Source: a virus (taxonomy: Duplodnaviria; Heunggongvirae; Uroviricota; Caudoviricetes). Taken from it: a DNA stretch of 4,952 nt. The notes beneath the pieces are model-generated. The model did not search any database. It was not told the origin of the DNA and worked only from the letters and a program-made list of their open reading frames with translations. Shown piece after piece: positions 1 to 4,952 of this stretch (within the stretch, counting starts at the first letter, position 1; every line of letters starts with the position of its first letter). The DNA lies in the IMG/VR virus record IMGVR_UViG_2713896771_000019; one strand, 5' to 3'. The position numbers were made by a program, and so were the translations under genes.

Positions 1-1253
1 GAACGGATGCACCCCCATAAAGCCGTGTGATTTTCCGTCTTGTTCCCGGCCTCCTCTATGCGCTCCAGTTCAGCAGGGGCGCGGGGAACGTCAATCACCA
101 CCATGGACACAATCTCTTCGCCATCGGTATCGGTGAACACCTCCACGCTTTTAAGGTCGTATGCGCTCTCTTTTGGCTCCTCTGCGTCCTTCATCTTCGT
201 ACATGCCGCCACCAGTGCTGTAACGTCTGAATTTTCCCGGCCGATTCGGTACTCTGCATCAAGCGCGGCACGGAATGCGCTGGAACCACGCGCCCCCTTT
301 GTTTCATCCTTGCCGGAATGGTGAACCACCAGCACCGTGGCCCCTGTAGCCTGCTTTATCGCGTCACACCCCTGGATAAATGCGCCCATATCACGGGAAT
401 CATTTTCATCATTCCCACCAAAGCAACGGGCCAGCGTGTCGATCACAATCAGCCGCACATTTTCGCCCGTTCTGCTCTTAACAAGTCCGGCAGTCCTGAT
501 AACCTGCTCCACATAGTCAGGCGATGCGGGAAAGACAGGCGCGTTAACGATGCACAAATCTGTAACCTCTTTTCCGTATGTTATCTCCCACGCCTTAACG
601 CGGCGTTTTACGCCCATACTGCCTTCGCCAGCGATATAGATAACAGCGCCCTTACTTACCCTGCGGCCTCCCCATGCCATACCTGTGGCAACATGGCACG
701 ACCAGGAAATAGCCAGGAACGATTTATAAGAACCGCTGGCCCCGTAGGTGCTGCATAATGACTCAGCCGGAATAAGCCCCTTAATTACGTAGCTTTGCTG
801 CGCGTCGAATCCCTCAGAACCCCATGAGATGGGAAGTGTGATTTTTCGCTTTCCACCATTCATGACCAGACTTTCCCCGCGTTCCCAGGTTTCTTTAAGT
901 CGCGGTAGTTGCTCGCTCCAGTCCTCCAGCAGTTCGAAATTCTCTGAAAGTAACCGTGCTTCCTGAACACCTGCGATCGCCAGTTTGGTGGCAATGGTCA
1001 GCATCTGCATATCGTCCAGGTTTCCGGCGCGTATGACCTTTGCTCTGTATCGTCCTTCATCAACAATCTGTAAATTGTCCAGTTCGCTTAACTGATAACG
1101 GCCCAGGTAAACCGGAGGGATGGGATCGCCTGCTTTTTTGGCCTGTGCAATCATGTAATGTTCTGCAAAGGAGTGAGCATTATCACCCGCAAAAATAACC
1201 GCCTCAGTGTGTTTATCTTTCGGTAACAGTTTTACGTTCGGTGCCAGTTTCAT
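1..1253 (-). CDS. RepA-like (AAA_25 / RecA-fold) ATPase, probable replication helicase; 3' end truncated by the window edge
   Basis: Manual translation of the minus strand from ATG at 1253-1251 gives at least 417 codons with no stop before position 1 (not in the supplied ORF track, presumably because it is incomplete). SD-like GAGGT lies 5 nt upstream, and an in-frame TAA lies 2 codons upstream of the ATG. Motifs seen: Walker-A-like GASGSYKS, Walker-B-like LIVIDTL, and VVHHSGKDETKGARGSSAFRAALD, which resembles the H-x-GK / RGSSA signature of RepA/AAA_25 helicases. The N-terminal ~150 aa has no motif I recognise. Confidence 0.7.
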   Translation of the reverse strand, partial: MKLAPNVKLLPKDKHTEAVIFAGDNAHSFAEHYMIAQAKKAGDPIPPVYLGRYQLSELDNLQIVDEGRYRAKVIRAGNLDDMQMLTIATKLAIAGVQEARLLSENFELLEDWSEQLPRLKETWERGESLVMNGGKRKITLPISWGSEGFDAQQSYVIKGLIPAESLCSTYGASGSYKSFLAISWSCHVATGMAWGGRRVSKGAVIYIAGEGSMGVKRRVKAWEITYGKEVTDLCIVNAPVFPASPDYVEQVIRTAGLVKSRTGENVRLIVIDTLARCFGGNDENDSRDMGAFIQGCDAIKQATGATVLVVHHSGKDETKGARGSSAFRAALDAEYRIGRENSDVTALVAACTKMKDAEEPKESAYDLKSVEVFTDTDGEEIVSMVVIDVPRAPAELERIEEAGNKTENHTALWGCIR

Positions 1254-1549
1254 TTTTTACCTCTGGATGCGCTGAGCATGCTTTTTATTTTCTTAATATT
1301 TTCCCGTGCTTTTTCCCTGCTGGTGGGCTTACCGCGTGTTGCGTTCTGTACCAGAGAAAAATCACGCCGGAACTGATAAACAGGCATCACGCAGTCATAG
1401 CCGTACCCATCACGGCGGTAAGTAACACACCGTCCCGCCACGCTTTTAATCGTTACAGTGCCGCCGTATTTATCTTTGAAAATATCGCCGGGGCGGATTT
1501 CAGGCCGAGAGAGGCCGCTGGCAGTAAAGCCAGAATTTTTCTGTTTCAT
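1250..1549 (-). CDS. Hypothetical small basic protein (99 aa), possible small beta-rich domain
   Basis: Complete ORF in the track. SD-like GGAGAA lies ~8 nt upstream of the ATG at 1549. Its TGA stop overlaps the ATG of the downstream ATPase (ATGA, 1250-1253), which suggests translational coupling. The motif PEIRPGDIFKDKYGGTVTIKSV...VTYRRDGY resembles small phage-associated domains of unknown function; that assignment is tentative. Confidence 0.55.
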   Translation of the reverse strand: MKQKNSGFTASGLSRPEIRPGDIFKDKYGGTVTIKSVAGRCVTYRRDGYGYDCVMPVYQFRRDFSLVQNATRGKPTSREKARENIKKIKSMLSASRGKK

Positions 1550-1554
1550 GGTTT

Positions 1555-1782
1555 TTATTCTCCGGTGTGATGCGTTTTATTATTCTCGTGAATTGCCATC
1601 ACCGTATTTAATTCGTTAATTACTGGCGTTAATAATGTGTGCACGGCAGAAAACATCATGGGATATGATTCATCGCCATTTTCCGGCACTTCCATTAACT
1701 TAAGTAATAATGCCTCCATTTCCTTTGCGCGGATTAATGCGTTTTCAGAATGAATAAGAACATCAAAAGGTATTTTATGCAT
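1555..1782 (-). CDS. Hypothetical protein (75 aa from the ATG at 1782; the ORF extends to 1818)
   Basis: The track ORF 1555..1818 starts at an ATG with no SD. The internal ATG at 1782-1780 has GGGAGA ~8 nt upstream and overlaps the upstream gene by only 8 bp, so 1782 is the preferred start. No recognisable motifs. Confidence 0.45.
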   Translation of the reverse strand: MHKIPFDVLIHSENALIRAKEMEALLLKLMEVPENGDESYPMMFSAVHTLLTPVINELNTVMAIHENNKTHHTGE

Positions 1783-2005
1783 CACACAGTTTCTCCCTGA
1801 TTCTTTTAGTGTCCTCATTGAGGATGTCTGTAGCTTTTGTCAGTGAGTTTTTGGTAATTATTTTTATTGTTTTAAATTTTCTTTTGTCGTACTCCGACTG
1901 TGATTTCTTCTCCATAATCTCTACCATGCAATTTATATCCACAAGCGCATGTATCAGTACTTTCAATGCTTCGCCTGCTGCGTCCGGCGTGTTTTTATTG
2001 CACAT
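1775..2005 (-). CDS. Hypothetical protein (76 aa), Lys/Glu-rich
   Basis: Complete ORF in the track. A perfect AGGAGG SD lies 6 nt upstream of the ATG at 2005-2003. The start overlaps the 3' end of the upstream ORF by 11 bp. No recognisable motifs. Confidence 0.5.
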   Translation of the reverse strand: MCNKNTPDAAGEALKVLIHALVDINCMVEIMEKKSQSEYDKRKFKTIKIITKNSLTKATDILNEDTKRIREKLCDA

Positions 2006-2201
2006 GATGCACCTCCTGACGAATACGGGCGGCGAATACCATCACGCAGCCATCAGGAGATTGCTGGCGGGCTTCCTGTTCGCTGGTGGCCTCGATGGTA
2101 ATCACGCGCGGCTGTGCCGTGCTCAGGGCGATAAAACGCCAGATGTATTTATTCAGGTTGTGCGAGTCCCGCCCTTGCGGGTGTGTGGTATGATTTCTCA
2201 T
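1995..2201 (-). CDS. Small protein (68 aa), putative Icd-like (P4-type host cell division inhibitor-like), first gene of the minus-strand operon
   Basis: This is the C-terminal in-frame part of the 308-aa track ORF 1995..2921. The internal ATG at 2201-2199 is preceded by GAGGT. Manual translation: MRNHTTHPQGRDSHNLNKYIWRFIALSTAQPRVITIEATSEQEARQQSPDGCVMVFAARIRQEVHHVQ. The W-x-F-x-A ... EARxx ... FAAR pattern matches my recollection of Icd-like proteins in P4-like prophages; this is unverified. Confidence 0.45.
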   Translation of the reverse strand: MRNHTTHPQGRDSHNLNKYIWRFIALSTAQPRVITIEATSEQEARQQSPDGCVMVFAARIRQEVHHVQ

Positions 2202-2296
2202 AGCTACCTCGATACTTTCGCTATCGTTGGTGGTTAGAGGCTGCGAAAGGACGGCAATCCTTTCCAGCCTCGTTTGCATTGAGTGATAGTTACTCA

Positions 2297-2377
2297 ACTG
2301 GATTCCAGTATAATCACCAAGTGGAATCCACTTCAAGCATTTTGTTTTGGTCTTTTTCGTGTATACTGGATTCCAGT
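2297..2377. promoter_or_regulatory. Divergent switch region with three palindromic operator-like sites (consensus TGGAWTCCA)
   Basis: ACTGGATTCCAGT at 2297-2309 and again at 2365-2377 are identical 13-bp palindromes. GTGGAATCCAC at 2321-2331 is an 11-bp palindrome with the same half-sites. TATAAT at 2309-2314 and TATACT at 2362-2367 abut sites 1 and 3 on the plus strand. The region lies between the divergent 59-aa ORF and the minus-strand operon. Confidence 0.5.
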
Positions 2378-2397
2378 AATCACAAAGGAAACCAGAA

Positions 2398-2577
2398 ATG
2401 GAAAGAGACCATATCAATAACAAATCACAGAAATTACAGGCTCGCGCCCCGCATGAAGTTGTTGAGGCAATGGAGCAAGTCAAAGAAACGGGCGAGAGTA
2501 CTGCGCAGTTTATCGTTACAGCCATGCGTGGCGAGATCAAACGCCGCCAGCGGCGCAAGGCCAAAGAGCAGGAATAG
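2398..2577 (+). CDS. Small basic protein (59 aa), candidate DNA-binding regulator of the switch
   Basis: Found by manual translation (below the size cut-off of the ORF track): MERDHINNKSQKLQARAPHEVVEAMEQVKETGESTAQFIVTAMRGEIKRRQRRKAKEQE. AAGGAA SD lies 7 nt upstream of the ATG. A 7-bp stem-loop (2582-2600) follows the TAG stop, and a strong intrinsic terminator lies ~100 bp further downstream. It is transcribed divergently from the operon across the operator palindromes. Confidence 0.5.
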   Translation: MERDHINNKSQKLQARAPHEVVEAMEQVKETGESTAQFIVTAMRGEIKRRQRRKAKEQE

Positions 2578-2973: not shown

Positions 2974-3162
2974 TTAGTGAACTGCCTCGCAGCTGTCTTT
3001 CCATGCCAGAACTTCGGATAAAGACCAGCCAACGGAACGACCGCCGAGCTTACGCCGTGATGGGAATTGTCCGGCTTTTTCCAGGCGGTACCGACATGAG
3101 CGGCTCAGGCCTGTAAGTTGCTGACATTCTTTTTCACGTATAAAGCGATCTGTGCTTAACAC
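2974..3162 (-). CDS. alpA: AlpA/Vis-family phage transcriptional regulator (62 aa, MerR-like HTH)
   Basis: Track ORF; the start codon is GTG at 3162-3160, preceded by a strong SD AAGGGGG (4 nt spacer). The motif LTGLSRSCRYRLEKAGQFPSRRKLGGRSVGWSLSEVLAW matches the AlpA-family signature (HTH ... FP ... LG.RSVGW...E...W). It lies downstream of, and in the same orientation as, the integrase, as in P4-like elements. Confidence 0.8.
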   Translation of the reverse strand: MLSTDRFIREKECQQLTGLSRSCRYRLEKAGQFPSRRKLGGRSVGWSLSEVLAWKDSCEAVH

Positions 3163-3192: not shown

Positions 3193-3240
3193 ATTGGGTG
3201 GGTTATTGGGTTGGGTTGTGTCGGATTGTGTCAGGGTGTT
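3193..3240. repeat. G/T-rich degenerate repeats (TTGGGT x3, TTGTGTC x2) in 10-bp register, upstream of the alpA start
   Basis: TTGGGT at 3194, 3206 and 3211; (G/A)TTGTGTC at 3215-3222 and 3225-3232. The region is 30-80 bp upstream of the alpA GTG on the minus strand, so it falls in the alpA promoter region. Confidence 0.45.
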
Positions 3241-3408: not shown

Positions 3409-3456
3409 AAATCAGACTTATAGGGAGTTAATCAGAAATAATCATAGATAATCAGA
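3409..3456. repeat. Helically phased (W)AATCAGA repeats
   Basis: ATCAGA at 3411-3416, 3431-3436 and 3451-3456, exactly 20 bp apart, with ATCATA at 3441-3446 in the same 10-bp register. Confidence 0.55.
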
Positions 3457-3457
3457 T

Positions 3458-3517
3458 TTGTTCCAGATTGTTCGCCGTTGTTCGTCGTTGTGTCTCGTTG
3501 TTTCACGTTGTGTCCGT
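3458..3517. repeat. Six tandem 10-bp repeats TTGT(T/G)(T/C)CNCG directly downstream of the int stop
   Basis: Units: ttgttccaga, ttgttcgccg, ttgttcgtcg, ttgtgtctcg, ttgtttcacg, ttgtgtccgt, contiguous with perfect 10-bp register. The array ends ~20 bp from the int TAA (3539-3541). Confidence 0.7.
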
Positions 3518-3538
3518 TCTGAAAAATCGCGAAAAAAA

Positions 3539-4789
3539 TTATATTTCTCTGGCTATTGGCAGTGTGGTTACGTTTTCGTGAGCACCTGCCAGTATCTCTA
3601 ATCGCTCTGTCCACATATCCAGCGCATTACGTTTCGCATCGATATAACGGGAGTGGTTATAGACTCGTTGCATCCCTGGCATCTGGTGAGCGGTGAGTTG
3701 TTCGACAATATGTGGATCCACGCCTAAATCGTTCAGCATCGTGGTAAACGTGCGCCGTATATCGTGTAGTGACCAGTGCGGATGGTTTAATTTTTTGTGC
3801 GTGAATCTGCCGTATTGCGACACGCTGGCTTCCTGTTTCAGTTCCCCGAGTAATAGCCCTGTGTGCCTGTTCTGCTCCACCAGCTGTGTGACGAACGGCA
3901 AAATGCTTTCCGGTATTGGCCTGAATATGGCGACCTTCGTTTTGCTGTGCTCTTTCGGTACTGTCCAGAGCATTTCCTTAAAATCCCACTCCCTGATCTC
4001 CGACAGCCTCAGTTCTCCGGTCCGGCAGCCGAACACAATCAGGAGGCGGATTAGTGCGCTGTAGTAGGGCGGGAATATTTTTTTATCCAGCGCCTGTAAT
4101 AATTCGCTCAGTTCTTTGTTGCTCAGCACGCGTTCGCTTATGCCCGGCTTTTTGCCAACGTCCACCACGTTGAGATCATCCAGAACGTTACTGACTGCGT
4201 AGCGACGTTTACGGCAGAACTTAAGCGCCTGTTTACACGCCTGCATCATGTGGCCAGATGTTACGGGTGATTTTTTGCGTATCCGGTCAAAACAGGCCAG
4301 CCAGTGACGTAACTCGCATTTATCCAGTGGCATATTGCCAATATGCTGTATGACGTGATTATTAAGGCGGCTTTTCAGGCATACGTAATCGACACGGTTT
4401 TCCTTTACGTGCATTTCCAGCCAGTAGCTGATCGCATCGCCCACCGTTACCGGCTTTAGTGCTTCCTGTATGGAGTAATTAAGCTCATGGCGTGGATTTT
4501 TTCCTTCTGCCAGCCATGCGCGACACTGTGCTGCTTTTTCCCTGGCTGCTTTCAGGCTCAGATCAGGATAATTTCCCAGTTTCAGGCGTTCCGGTGATAC
4601 CTGGCGTCCTGTTCCTGCCCTGTAGGTGAAATACCAGGTTAACAGGCCGCTGGTGGAGTGTCTGATACTCAGATTTCCACCGTCATTAAGAAAGGTGGTT
4701 TTTTGGGCTGGTGTGCCGTTGATTTTTCTTAGCTGCGTGTCGCTCAGTTTGTTAAGTGCCCTGCTCATAATTTTGAATCCGGTCATCAC
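3539..4789 (-). CDS. int: P4-family tyrosine site-specific integrase (416 aa)
   Basis: Track ORF. The N-terminal arm-binding-like region (LSDTQLRK...FLNDGGNLSIR...YFTYRAGTGRQVSPERLKLGNYPDLSLKAAREKA) resembles P4-type integrases. The C-terminal catalytic region carries the tyrosine-recombinase signatures GCRTGELRLSE, HDIRRTF and a Tyr in RVYNHSRY. The first codon at 4789 is GTG; alternative ATG starts lie at 4786 and 4768, none with a clear SD. Confidence 0.9.
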   Translation of the reverse strand: MMTGFKIMSRALNKLSDTQLRKINGTPAQKTTFLNDGGNLSIRHSTSGLLTWYFTYRAGTGRQVSPERLKLGNYPDLSLKAAREKAAQCRAWLAEGKNPRHELNYSIQEALKPVTVGDAISYWLEMHVKENRVDYVCLKSRLNNHVIQHIGNMPLDKCELRHWLACFDRIRKKSPVTSGHMMQACKQALKFCRKRRYAVSNVLDDLNVVDVGKKPGISERVLSNKELSELLQALDKKIFPPYYSALIRLLIVFGCRTGELRLSEIREWDFKEMLWTVPKEHSKTKVAIFRPIPESILPFVTQLVEQNRHTGLLLGELKQEASVSQYGRFTHKKLNHPHWSLHDIRRTFTTMLNDLGVDPHIVEQLTAHQMPGMQRVYNHSRYIDAKRNALDMWTERLEILAGAHENVTTLPIAREI

Positions 4790-4790
4790 A

Positions 4791-4814
4791 ATTAACTACA
4801 CCATTAACTACACC
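4791..4814. repeat. Perfect 12-bp tandem duplication ATTAACTACACC x2, immediately upstream of the int start
   Basis: Copies at 4791-4802 and 4803-4814 are identical and abut the int start codon region (4786-4789). Confidence 0.7.
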
Positions 4815-4830
4815 GATCATTGCACAAGGG

Positions 4831-4860
4831 GGTACAACGTGGAACAAGCTGGAACAAGAA
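4831..4860. repeat. Three tandem 10-bp repeats GG(T/A)ACAA(C/G)NT upstream of int, the inverse of the array downstream of int
   Basis: Units ggtacaacgt, ggaacaagct, ggaacaagaa. Read on the minus strand they give CTTGTTCCAG / CTTGTTCCAC / GTTGTACC, sharing the 9-mer TTGTTCCAG (plus 3458-3466; minus 4857-4849) and CACGTTGT (plus 3504-3511; minus 4841-4834) with the 3458-3517 array. Confidence 0.65.
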
Positions 4861-4952
4861 AAATTGCAATAGACTTAAAAATCAAAAACATAATGAACAA
4901 CGTGGCACATTATGAAACAGCAAAAAACACTAATTTATAAAAATCCGCTATT

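Follow-up and report, generated by a model that had tools for sequence, protein, structure and literature searches.

How does a phage satellite prime its DNA synthesis when its replicase contains no recognisable primase? The question is raised by IMG/VR record IMGVR_UViG_2713896771_000019, a 4,952-nt stretch of caudoviricete DNA (hereafter the window, taken at its full length), in which the fifth of five packed minus-strand genes encodes a replicase with an uncharacterised N-terminal domain (N-domain) ahead of a RepA-like ATPase core. The region is very probably the replication module of a phage-inducible chromosomal island (PICI), most likely a capsid-forming PICI (cf-PICI) inserted in yifB/comM. 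Through PICIs and cf-PICIs, genes for virulence, resistance and defence spread at very high frequency, and the replication module of these elements is a core detection marker, yet it is handled as a black box named 'pri-rep'. As a member of a known satellite family, the window itself is typical and has been annotated before, and it holds nothing that alters current understanding. The residual novelty lies in a satellite-restricted, uncharacterised N-domain, in the lack of a recognisable primase and in a candidate repressor of the YlcI family.

The N-terminal domain of the replicase

The replicase gene and its parts within the window are as follows.

1..1253, minus strand: replicase/ATPase gene, first 417 of 468 codons, running past the left window edge; 'helicase RepA family protein' in RefSeq
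879..1253, minus strand: N-domain, amino acids 1-125; predicted alpha/beta fold of Rossmann/TOPRIM-like type, no Pfam family, a portable module
303..818, minus strand: AAA_25/RepA-like core of RecA fold, amino acids 146-317 (Pfam PF13481, E = 5e-43, 147.5 bits against a cut-off of 27)
720..743, minus strand: variant Walker A motif GASGSYKS, amino acids 171-178 (from the translation and the alignment of relatives)

An earlier reading of this DNA, made from its letters alone (the sequence-only reading), had described the N-terminus of the ATPase as unrecognised and too short for a full primase. Consistent with that description, amino acids 1-145 of the replicase matched nothing in Pfam or NCBIfam. 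Modelled alone with AlphaFold2 (AF2), the N-domain reached a predicted local distance difference test score (pLDDT) of 93, and its predicted fold is Rossmann/TOPRIM-like. A Foldseek search of the PDB with the N-domain gave nothing significant, and a fold search of BFVD gave one uncharacterised phage protein of 112 amino acids. An exhaustive HMMER search of 1.84 billion representatives found the N-domain in only 69 clusters. Among 50,697 phage records it occurred three times, and at least one of these records, although deposited as a phage, is a cf-PICI-like element of 16.5 kb. By these searches, the N-domain is restricted to satellites.

Analysis of the proteins carrying the N-domain revealed its fusion to four unrelated helicase cores (AAA_25, VapE, D5_N/DUF5906/Pox_D5 and DUF927). 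The N-domain of the EcCICFT073 Pri-Rep protein is 46% identical to that of the window (E = 5e-30); Pfam finds no primase domain in this protein and lists only D5_N, DUF5906 and Pox_D5 beside the N-domain. No recognisable primase domain was found in any of the N-domain-bearing replicases examined, the EcCICFT073 protein included, and the Pfam lists of two complete islands closely related to the window (L088 and L001) show no primase elsewhere in the island. Judged by these comparisons, the 'allelic variants' of Pri-Rep in E. coli share one uncharacterised N-terminal module and differ in the helicase motor.

Comparison with relatives lacking the N-domain revealed what other replicases carry at this position. 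AAA_25 relatives with 55-65% core identity have Zn_Ribbon_Prim and Toprim_3 where the N-domain sits, and the VapE lineage (for example phage Arya) has a primase of Toprim_4, Toprim_3 and PriCT_2 there. The AAA_25 primase-helicases of this kind (L003, L028 and others, from islands of Xenorhabdus, Pectobacterium, Serratia and Morganella) are 55-65% identical to the window protein in the core and C-terminal domain, share its GxSGSYKS P-loop and have the same iteron family 3' of the gene. They differ in carrying a primase of the P4-alpha/DnaG type (zinc ribbon and EGYATA Toprim) of about 340-370 amino acids in place of the 125-residue N-domain. In these alignments the N-terminus of the AAA_25 replicase family is a hot spot of module exchange.

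The N-domain has no Pfam match to Toprim or Zn_Ribbon_Prim, though relatives have both. Alignment of the N-domain family to the Zn-ribbon/Toprim region of the long relatives with hhalign gave a probability of 0.24, that is, no sequence-level homology. The positions of the TOPRIM glutamic acid and DxD motif are occupied by the invariant pairs Ala22-Gly23 and Ala76-Gly77, a correspondence taken from predicted secondary structure and not from superposition. Our reading is that the N-domain may be either a degenerate version of the primase domain or a module put in its place, without a canonical catalytic site. Initiation and priming probably differ from those of the P4 alpha protein, as the sequence-only reading had supposed.

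Metazoan Twinkle keeps a catalytically dead primase-like domain and may be the closest functional analogy for a replicase of this kind. The similarity to T7 gp4 and Twinkle is weak and at fold level only; the replicase described here has neither a zinc-binding domain nor the N-terminal subdomain of the RNA-polymerase domain, and its core is AAA_25 (RepA-like), not DnaB-like.

A tentative explanation, which we regard as possible rather than probable, is that the N-domain is a satellite-specific adaptor. In two helicase lineages at least, AAA_25 and VapE, it would have taken the place of a TOPRIM primase; it would also sit on D5-type and DUF927 cores, and would couple the helicase to host DnaG or the host replisome so that the islands need no primase of their own, mostly with the DUF4222 protein encoded directly upstream as a partner. 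The same proposal takes the YlcI/YnfO protein, encoded divergently from the operon, as the repressor of Gram-negative PICIs, with operator specificities swapped between islands. If the adaptor proposal is true, the widely used name 'Pri-Rep' denotes a protein without a primase. The analysis as a whole opens testable hypotheses on how satellites prime DNA synthesis and why their modules are exchanged.

Several points weigh against the main explanation, in which the region is a PICI replication module whose replicase is primed by the host. The acidic residues D43, D65 and E110 of the N-domain are invariant and leave room for an unconventional active site. DUF4222 is absent from VapE-type islands. 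The window ends inside the replicase, and only near-identical relatives show the C-terminal domain, the origin (ori) and the capsid genes. The match of YlcI to the ribbon-helix-helix-type Pfam family PSK_trans_fac is weak and below threshold (E = 0.027), and YlcI is a candidate ribbon-helix-helix repressor on the strength of this match and of its covariation with the operators. The promoter, the extent of the operon and the coupling of its genes are predictions as well.

The alternative that survives best, although we consider it unlikely, is that the N-domain is an active, unconventional primase, and that the protein is a true primase-helicase priming its own origin without DnaG, as the name Pri-Rep implies. 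The N-domain sits exactly where the closest relatives have a Zn-ribbon/TOPRIM primase, holds the invariant residues D43, D65, E110, K8, K14 and R68, and is under strong purifying selection (dN/dS 0.02-0.08); moreover, the EcCICFT073 Pri-Rep, with this domain only, supports phage-free replication. Against such an activity stand the invariant Ala-Gly pairs at the TOPRIM Glu/DxD positions, the lack of a zinc ribbon and of the N-terminal subdomain of the DnaG RNA-polymerase domain, and the lack of profile similarity to Toprim_3. To our knowledge, 125 amino acids is far below the size of any DnaG-type catalytic unit, and the DnaG of E. coli is available and would suffice.

A separate observation concerns the gene content of the islands bearing the N-domain. 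Among these, the VapE-type islands L093-L096 and the 16.5-kb element LR881103 (annotated 'DNA primase') encode a PhageMin_Tail/tape-measure-like protein of about 757-765 amino acids. The corresponding genes (L093:14342-15689, L094:11829-14102 and L099:2036-4333) are unexpected where tail genes were thought to be absent.

Helicase core and C-terminal domain

Full-length homologues of the replicase have 468 amino acids. Homologues P0001-P0032 are 97-100% identical to the window protein, and P0001 is 99-100% identical over the 417 residues in the window. The missing end, 51 C-terminal residues lying left of position 1, is supplied by L088 and by the classic PICI L082. The sequence-only reading had pointed to the full-length ATPase as one of the proteins to model, and AF2 prediction of the 468-residue homologue added a C-terminal domain beyond the window. 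AlphaFold models and alignments together divide the replicase into three parts: the N-domain (amino acids 1-125), the AAA_25 core and the C-terminal domain (amino acids ~405-468). The full-length AF2 model was built from a 24-sequence alignment, has low confidence in the ATPase core and was used for domain boundaries only; the linker between the N-domain and the core is also of low confidence. The C-terminal domain is modelled as three helices and a beta-hairpin (pLDDT 81-93), a predicted winged-helix-like and putatively DNA-binding fold.

The assignment of the ATPase to the RepA/AAA_25 type, made in the sequence-only reading, was borne out by the Pfam match and by the family profile, which matches the structure of RSF1010 RepA (1g8y) over amino acids 155-326 (E = 2.4e-4), the sole solved structure matched. 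So was the non-canonical nature of its Walker A motif. The canonical pattern GxxxxGK[ST] is not found in any relative retaining the motif, all of which have tyrosine or phenylalanine in place of glycine; in the profile alignment the tyrosine aligns with the glycine preceding lysine in the GGAGKS of RSF1010 RepA. The Lys-Ser of Walker A and the Walker B motif (IVIDTL) are retained. The pattern G[AP]SGS[YF]KS occurs in 74 of the 81 relatives across Enterobacterales, and the seven without the motif are mostly truncated open reading frames (ORFs). Because the motif is present in 74 of 81 relatives, the tyrosine is considered characteristic of the clade rather than a product of decay.

The RSF1010 (R1162) RepA protein consists of the core alone (279 amino acids) and relies on two other proteins, RepC as initiator and RepB' as primase. 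The satellite replicase shares the RecA-fold AAA_25 core of 1g8y; it differs in the N-domain and the putative DNA-binding C-terminal domain that flank the core, and in a P-loop with tyrosine or phenylalanine for the glycine before lysine.

Other N-termini were also observed in front of this core. Replicases of 453-457 amino acids (L022, L026, L031, L044 and others) carry a second, unrelated N-terminal module of about 125 residues, without a Pfam match, before the same AAA_25 core; this module was found in Pantoea, Kluyvera, Kosakonia and others. Short forms of the replicase have merely 24-42 amino acids ahead of the core.

Replication origin and iterons

A total of 11 copies of RGTGGG were found in the 234 bp 3' of the replicase stop codon in L082 and L001, where about 0.3 copies are expected. 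These iterons lie outside the window and are split around AT-rich stretches. In Gram-negative PICIs the genes int, alpA and pri-rep are followed by an ori composed of two iteron sets flanking an AT-rich region (PMC6092414), and the arrays of L082 and L001 match this published layout. Since the C-terminal 64 amino acids of P0001 are identical in L082 and L001, an ori of this kind should likewise lie to the left of position 1.

The prototype replicon of Gram-negative PICIs is the Pri-Rep/ori of EcCICFT073 (Fillol-Salom et al. 2018, PMC6092414), whose pri-rep-ori segment replicates autonomously in DH5alpha (PMC6092414). Autonomous replication from rep and ori has been demonstrated for EcCICFT073 only, and the helicase core of that element differs from the one described here. 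Comparison of the two systems revealed a divergent ylcI, an Icd-like gene, small ORFs, a DUF4222 gene with a 4-bp overlap into the replicase, an iteron ori, a gene for about 85 amino acids and an SSB gene in both; both replicases open with the same N-domain, and both origins have iterons around AT-rich DNA. EcCICFT073 differs in its D5_N/DUF5906/Pox_D5 core of helicase superfamily 3 (SF3), as against the AAA_25 core of superfamily 4 (SF4)-like type here, in its iterons (GTCTACC as against RGTGGG), in having four small ORFs and not two, and in a packaging module of the classic PICI type, not capsid-forming.

Among 80 relatives, related iteron arrays lie 3' of nearly every replicase gene, whatever its N-terminus, with motifs including AAGTGGG, GTGGGGA, GTGAGGA, TGGGGGA and TGCCGCA. 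Many initiators bind DNA through N-terminal domains, and the N-domain, perhaps together with DUF4222, could by analogy be the determinant of origin specificity that reads the iterons; its modularity and its pairing, in three helicase classes, with DUF4222 (a small protein with a basic tail) speak for such a role. We consider this quite improbable. AAGTGGG iterons are also found after replicases without the N-domain, which have either a Zn-ribbon/TOPRIM primase or a short N-terminus (L028, L043 and L063), and replicases with the N-domain use other iterons, namely AAGTGAGG in L097, TGCCGCA in L002 and GTCTACC in CFT073. Because iteron type is independent of the presence of the N-domain, the N-domain is unlikely to be the iteron reader. 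The predicted winged-helix-like domain is C-terminal, and iteron reading is best attributed, as a candidate function, to this domain rather than to the N-domain.

Island type and context

Two further genes, to the right of the operon, bear on the type of element.

3539..4789, minus strand: tyrosine integrase (Pfam Arm-DNA-bind_3 and Phage_integrase), at the yifB/comM-proximal end of the island
2974..3162, minus strand: alpA (Pfam Phage_AlpA, E = 3e-18)

Membership of the cf-PICI family was judged by the cfPICI model of SatelliteFinder (PMC10085698). The features of the model seen within the window are an integrase at one end, an AlpA regulator and a primase-replicase component (the AAA_25 replicase); the capsid, protease, portal, connector/adaptor, TerS and TerL genes are seen in L088 and L001, outside the span of the window. 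By megablast of complete E. coli genomes and locus comparison, the full 4952-nt window is 97.3% identical to L088, and the region was matched in 1925-1940 of the 5426 genomes. L088 is a capsid-forming PICI of about 15 kb in yifB/comM with the gene order yifB fragment, int, ylcI, icd-like, 76 amino acids, 75 amino acids, DUF4222, the 468-residue AAA_25 protein, 83 amino acids, SSB, ProQ and 82 amino acids, followed by the capsid/packaging end (HK97 capsid, S78 protease, portal, HNH, TerS and TerL); a connector gene and alpA are also present. L001 (strain O177:H21) has the same build and is also in yifB. Both islands adjoin yifB (ChlI) fragments and the ilv operon, and no tail, lysis or holin genes were found between the island ends of either.

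The content of L088 (int, alpA, rep, HK97 capsid, protease, portal, connector, HNH, TerS and TerL, without tail or lysis genes) agrees with the cf-PICI family of EcCIEDL933; the window differs in being the left third of such an element, and the site here is yifB/comM. AlpA is the activator of Gram-negative PICIs, as established for EcCICFT073 and EcCIEDL933 (PMC6092414; bioRxiv 10.1101/2022.09.08.507074), and AlpA-dependent induction, as in the EcCIEDL933 family, would be expected for this island by analogy. The cf-PICI papers cited here describe no functional dissection of the RepA-type replicase or the small genes upstream of it (bioRxiv 10.1101/2022.09.08.507074; PMC10085698).

Positions 1-2241 of the window are about 99% identical to the classic PICIs L082 and L085-L087, which carry only the capsid-E, decoration and Nu1-TerS set and occupy tRNA-Pro/yejM and another site near cspD/clpS. 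Since this identity is found in PICIs at other attachment (att) sites, the replication module is an exchangeable cassette. A recombination breakpoint lies at about position 2241, within a hairpin of the operon leader, and rightward of it the likeness to the classic PICIs falls off; the cf-PICI relative L088 differs from the window right of this point chiefly in the operator region. The left halves of the genome are common to PICIs and cf-PICIs, and the replicase tree is paraphyletic (PMC10085698). A cassette with a breakpoint in the leader fits both published results.

It is very improbable that the replication module belongs to a decaying prophage and not to a functional satellite. Phage-like genes and an integrase are present, and some relatives contain pseudogenes, L091 having an internal stop in the replicase and a frameshift in the integrase. 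However, hundreds of genomes keep, at several att sites, an architecture of about 10-15 kb without tail or lysis genes; the five genes are all intact and evolve under purifying selection; and induced particles yielded a 16.5-kb element (LR881103) whose replicase is of the same kind. The sequence-only reading had taken P4 as its frame of reference, but the matches to L088, L001 and the classic PICIs place the island among PICIs and cf-PICIs, not among P4-like elements. Although the operon opens with an Icd-like gene, has int and an AlpA/Vis-like gene in its neighbourhood and resembles the left operon of P4 in its order of small genes then replicase, a P4-like satellite operon with an alpha-type primase-helicase is hardly credible, given that full-length relatives are without psu, delta, sid and epsilon and carry HK97 capsid/portal/TerL or PICI capsid-E/decoration/Nu1-TerS sets, that the helicase is a RecA-fold AAA_25 protein and not the D5-type SF3 helicase of alpha, and that P0001 has no match covering at least 80% of its length among the 50,697 phage records.

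Operon geometry and small genes

Upstream of the replicase gene, four genes lie on the same strand.

1995..2201, minus strand: Icd-like gene, 68 amino acids, first in the operon (NCBIfam NF033153, 70.4 bits against a cut-off of 25; phrog_6196)
1775..2005, minus strand: orf76, small AT-rich accessory gene, GC content 0.38 (phrog_5146, E = 1.8e-10)
1555..1782, minus strand: orf75, small AT-rich accessory gene, GC content 0.37 (phrog_2196, E = 3.3e-9, full length)
1250..1549, minus strand: DUF4222 protein gene, 99 amino acids (Pfam PF13973, E = 7.6e-25, 86.7 bits against a gathering threshold of 27)

The sequence-only reading had listed five minus-strand ORFs (68, 76, 75 and 99 amino acids and the ATPase), packed with overlaps or minimal gaps and each with its own Shine-Dalgarno (SD) sequence. 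The coordinates agree with it exactly: from icd to the ATPase gene, the first two junctions are overlaps of 11 and 8 bp, the third is a gap of 5 bp and the fourth is a 4-bp overlap formed by the DUF4222 stop and the replicase start (ATGA). A purine-rich SD lies 5-10 nt upstream of each ATG (icd GAGG, 5 nt; orf76 AGGAGG, 6 nt; orf75 GGGAG, 10 nt; DUF4222 GGAG, 10 nt; ATPase GAGG, 6 nt). An alternative start of orf75 at 1818, which would give 87 amino acids, has no SD, and the RefSeq relatives annotate the 75-residue form. The same geometry of coding sequences is annotated across these relatives. Because of the close packing (overlaps of 11, 8 and 4 bp), translational coupling of the five genes is likely.

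Every one of the five ORFs matches a profile family. Comparison with diverged copies gave dN/dS below 1 for all five genes: 0.11-0.57 for icd (0.11-0.35 in most pairs), 0.18-0.20 for orf75, 0.37-0.52 for DUF4222 and 0.44 for orf76, the last from a single informative pair and the thinnest support in the set; the N-domain has the values given above. The small ORFs are thus conserved as coding sequences and evolve under purifying selection, in line with the sequence-only reading, and by these measures all five ORFs are real genes and not chance ORFs. A 308-codon minus-strand ORF (1995-2921) extends the 68-residue Icd-like gene upstream in frame, through the promoter region and ylcI; in some assemblies (L085 and L086) it is called in versions of 214 to 323 amino acids, which are an annotation artefact.

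The sequence-only reading had found no recognisable function in the three middle proteins. This does not apply to the 99-residue protein, which belongs to DUF4222, and holds for orf75 and orf76, for which no homologues of known function were detected in Pfam, PHROG, PDB and PADLOC searches. The orf75 protein has no match in PDB, Pfam or PADLOC. The orf76 family is found in Escherichia only and comprises 16 protein clusters with 74-97% identity; complete members have 76-77 amino acids, and the others are partial or mis-started. Direct comparison rejected a paralogous relationship between the two. PADLOC gave no defence-system match for any of the six proteins searched, and PDB sequence searches with DUF4222, orf75, orf76 and YlcI gave nothing meaningful. 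The GC content of orf75 and orf76 is 0.37-0.38, as against 0.48-0.56 in the flanking genes. Between icd and DUF4222, the slot holds one to four AT-rich ORFs, varying by island, as would be expected if this part of the replication operon were an accessory slot with fast turnover; orf75 and orf76 are regarded as accessory rather than core replication genes.

In all the AAA_25, D5-type and DUF927 islands examined, the DUF4222 gene lies directly upstream of the N-domain replicase gene and overlaps it by 4 bp; it is absent from relatives whose replicase is without the N-domain. A universal linkage of the two was rejected, the VapE-type islands having an unrelated gene for 93 amino acids at that position; the pairing suggests a non-obligatory partnership. 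CFT073 has another, shorter DUF4222 gene in one of its lambdoid prophages (L098:20192-20431), where it lies in the early region, beside an excisionase gene and far from any replicase, and DUF4222 is therefore not confined to satellite replication modules. We found no functional study of DUF4222 in the literature.

Control region of the operon

The features upstream of the operon are as follows.

2202..2306, minus strand: 5' leader of the operon; 15-bp hairpin at 2237-2271, plus a small one at 2206-2231 in which part of the icd SD is paired
2307..2336, minus strand: candidate promoter P_icd, -35 box TTGAAG at 2336-2331 and -10 box TATACT at 2312-2307 (consensus scan)
2297..2378, no strand assigned: three operator-like repeats found by repeat search, O1 at 2297-2310 (ACTGGATTCCAGTA), O2 at 2322-2333 (TGGAATCCACTT) and O3 at 2365-2378 (ACTGGATTCCAGTA)
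2398..2577, plus strand: divergent YlcI/YnfO-family gene, 59 amino acids (NCBIfam NF041551, 72.3 bits), a candidate operator-binding regulator

The equivalent site of L088 (TTGACG-18-TATAGT) has 10 of 12 matches to the consensus, and no other promoter-like site lies ahead of the operon on its own strand; the -35 box of P_icd is conserved in alignment A3. The leader RNA folds at -35.2 kcal/mol (z = -3.55). Its hairpin is kept at the same place with a different sequence in relatives, in which UCUAACCACCAAC is invariant. Rfam matches to RF00043 (R1162 antisense; 28.8 bits against a gathering score of 55) and MicX (18.9 bits) were below threshold and are taken as chance, and no C4 or IsrK-type RNA was found in the leader by Rfam. 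The immI operon of phage P1 comprises c4 RNA, icd and ant. The operon described here resembles it in having an Icd-family ORF first in a translationally packed operon with a structured leader RNA ahead; it differs in giving no Rfam C4 match at E <= 1 and in that its downstream genes serve replication and not an antirepressor.

The three repeats of 12-14 bp lie in a divergent region of 196 bp and overlap the -10 elements of both predicted promoters. Among relatives their positions are fixed, and their sequences differ by island. Analysis of 18 instances with about 12 repeat types revealed that the repeat co-varies with YlcI residues 12-16, in the N-terminal strand: ALKAR occurs with GGTGTGGCC, S[VL]TAR with GTCTTACAC, MTT[IV]R with GAAATACAC, LTTVR with GAAACACAC and, in the window, KLQAR with TGGAATCCA. 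From this we infer that YlcI is an operator-binding regulator of the operon. In Gram-negative PICIs, AlpA is the helper-induced activator and the global repressor has not been identified (PMC6092414); the covariation suggests a candidate for this missing repressor. No functional study of YlcI/YnfO was found in the literature.

The sequence-only reading had let the operon end at the ATPase gene. This is not supported, as no intrinsic terminator was found 3' of repA in L088, in which the same strand continues through ori, the 83-residue gene, SSB, ProQ and the capsid and packaging genes. Transcription therefore probably runs on into the SSB and packaging genes.

Proposed mechanism

The scheme set out here starts from the observed gene organisation, gene families, island type, cassette exchange, domain shuffling, iterons and operator-regulator covariation, and every biochemical activity in it is a prediction from sequence. 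Leftward transcription would begin at a sigma-70 promoter at about 2307-2336 and pass through the structured leader, and the transcript would carry, in order, the Icd-like gene, the two small variable accessory genes, DUF4222, the replicase, and then ori, the 83-residue gene, SSB and the packaging genes. The YlcI-family protein would bind the three operators overlapping both promoters, and AlpA, itself induced by a helper phage, would trigger induction.

At the origin, the C-terminal domain would recognise the RGTGGG iterons flanking AT-rich DNA directly 3' of the gene, and the RepA-like core (SF4, RecA fold), as a hexameric ring helicase, would load there and unwind the origin at its AT-rich centre. 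As no recognisable primase is present in the protein or the island, primers would be supplied by host DnaG. The N-domain may act as a structural or single-stranded-DNA-binding collar, like that of metazoan Twinkle, or as a docking surface for parts of the host replisome, with DUF4222 as a possible co-expressed partner.

Repeats and spacer near the integrase gene

Direct repeats with a periodicity of 10-12 bp flank the integrase gene (3193-3232, 3429-3518, 4787-4863 and 4897-4926) and share an ACAACG/GAACAA core, which has one orientation on one side of the gene and the opposite orientation on the other. Lying near the att site and the alpA promoter, they are probably binding sites for Int (arm-type), AlpA or both. 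The convergent genes ylcI and alpA are separated by a spacer of 396 bp (2578-2973), the plus strand of which has terminator-like hairpins at 2678-2703 and at about 2804-2832 (GGCGGCTCATTATCGGGGCCGC followed by T7). In relatives, the stretch matching 2578-2973 is annotated as a partial second Icd-like pseudogene.

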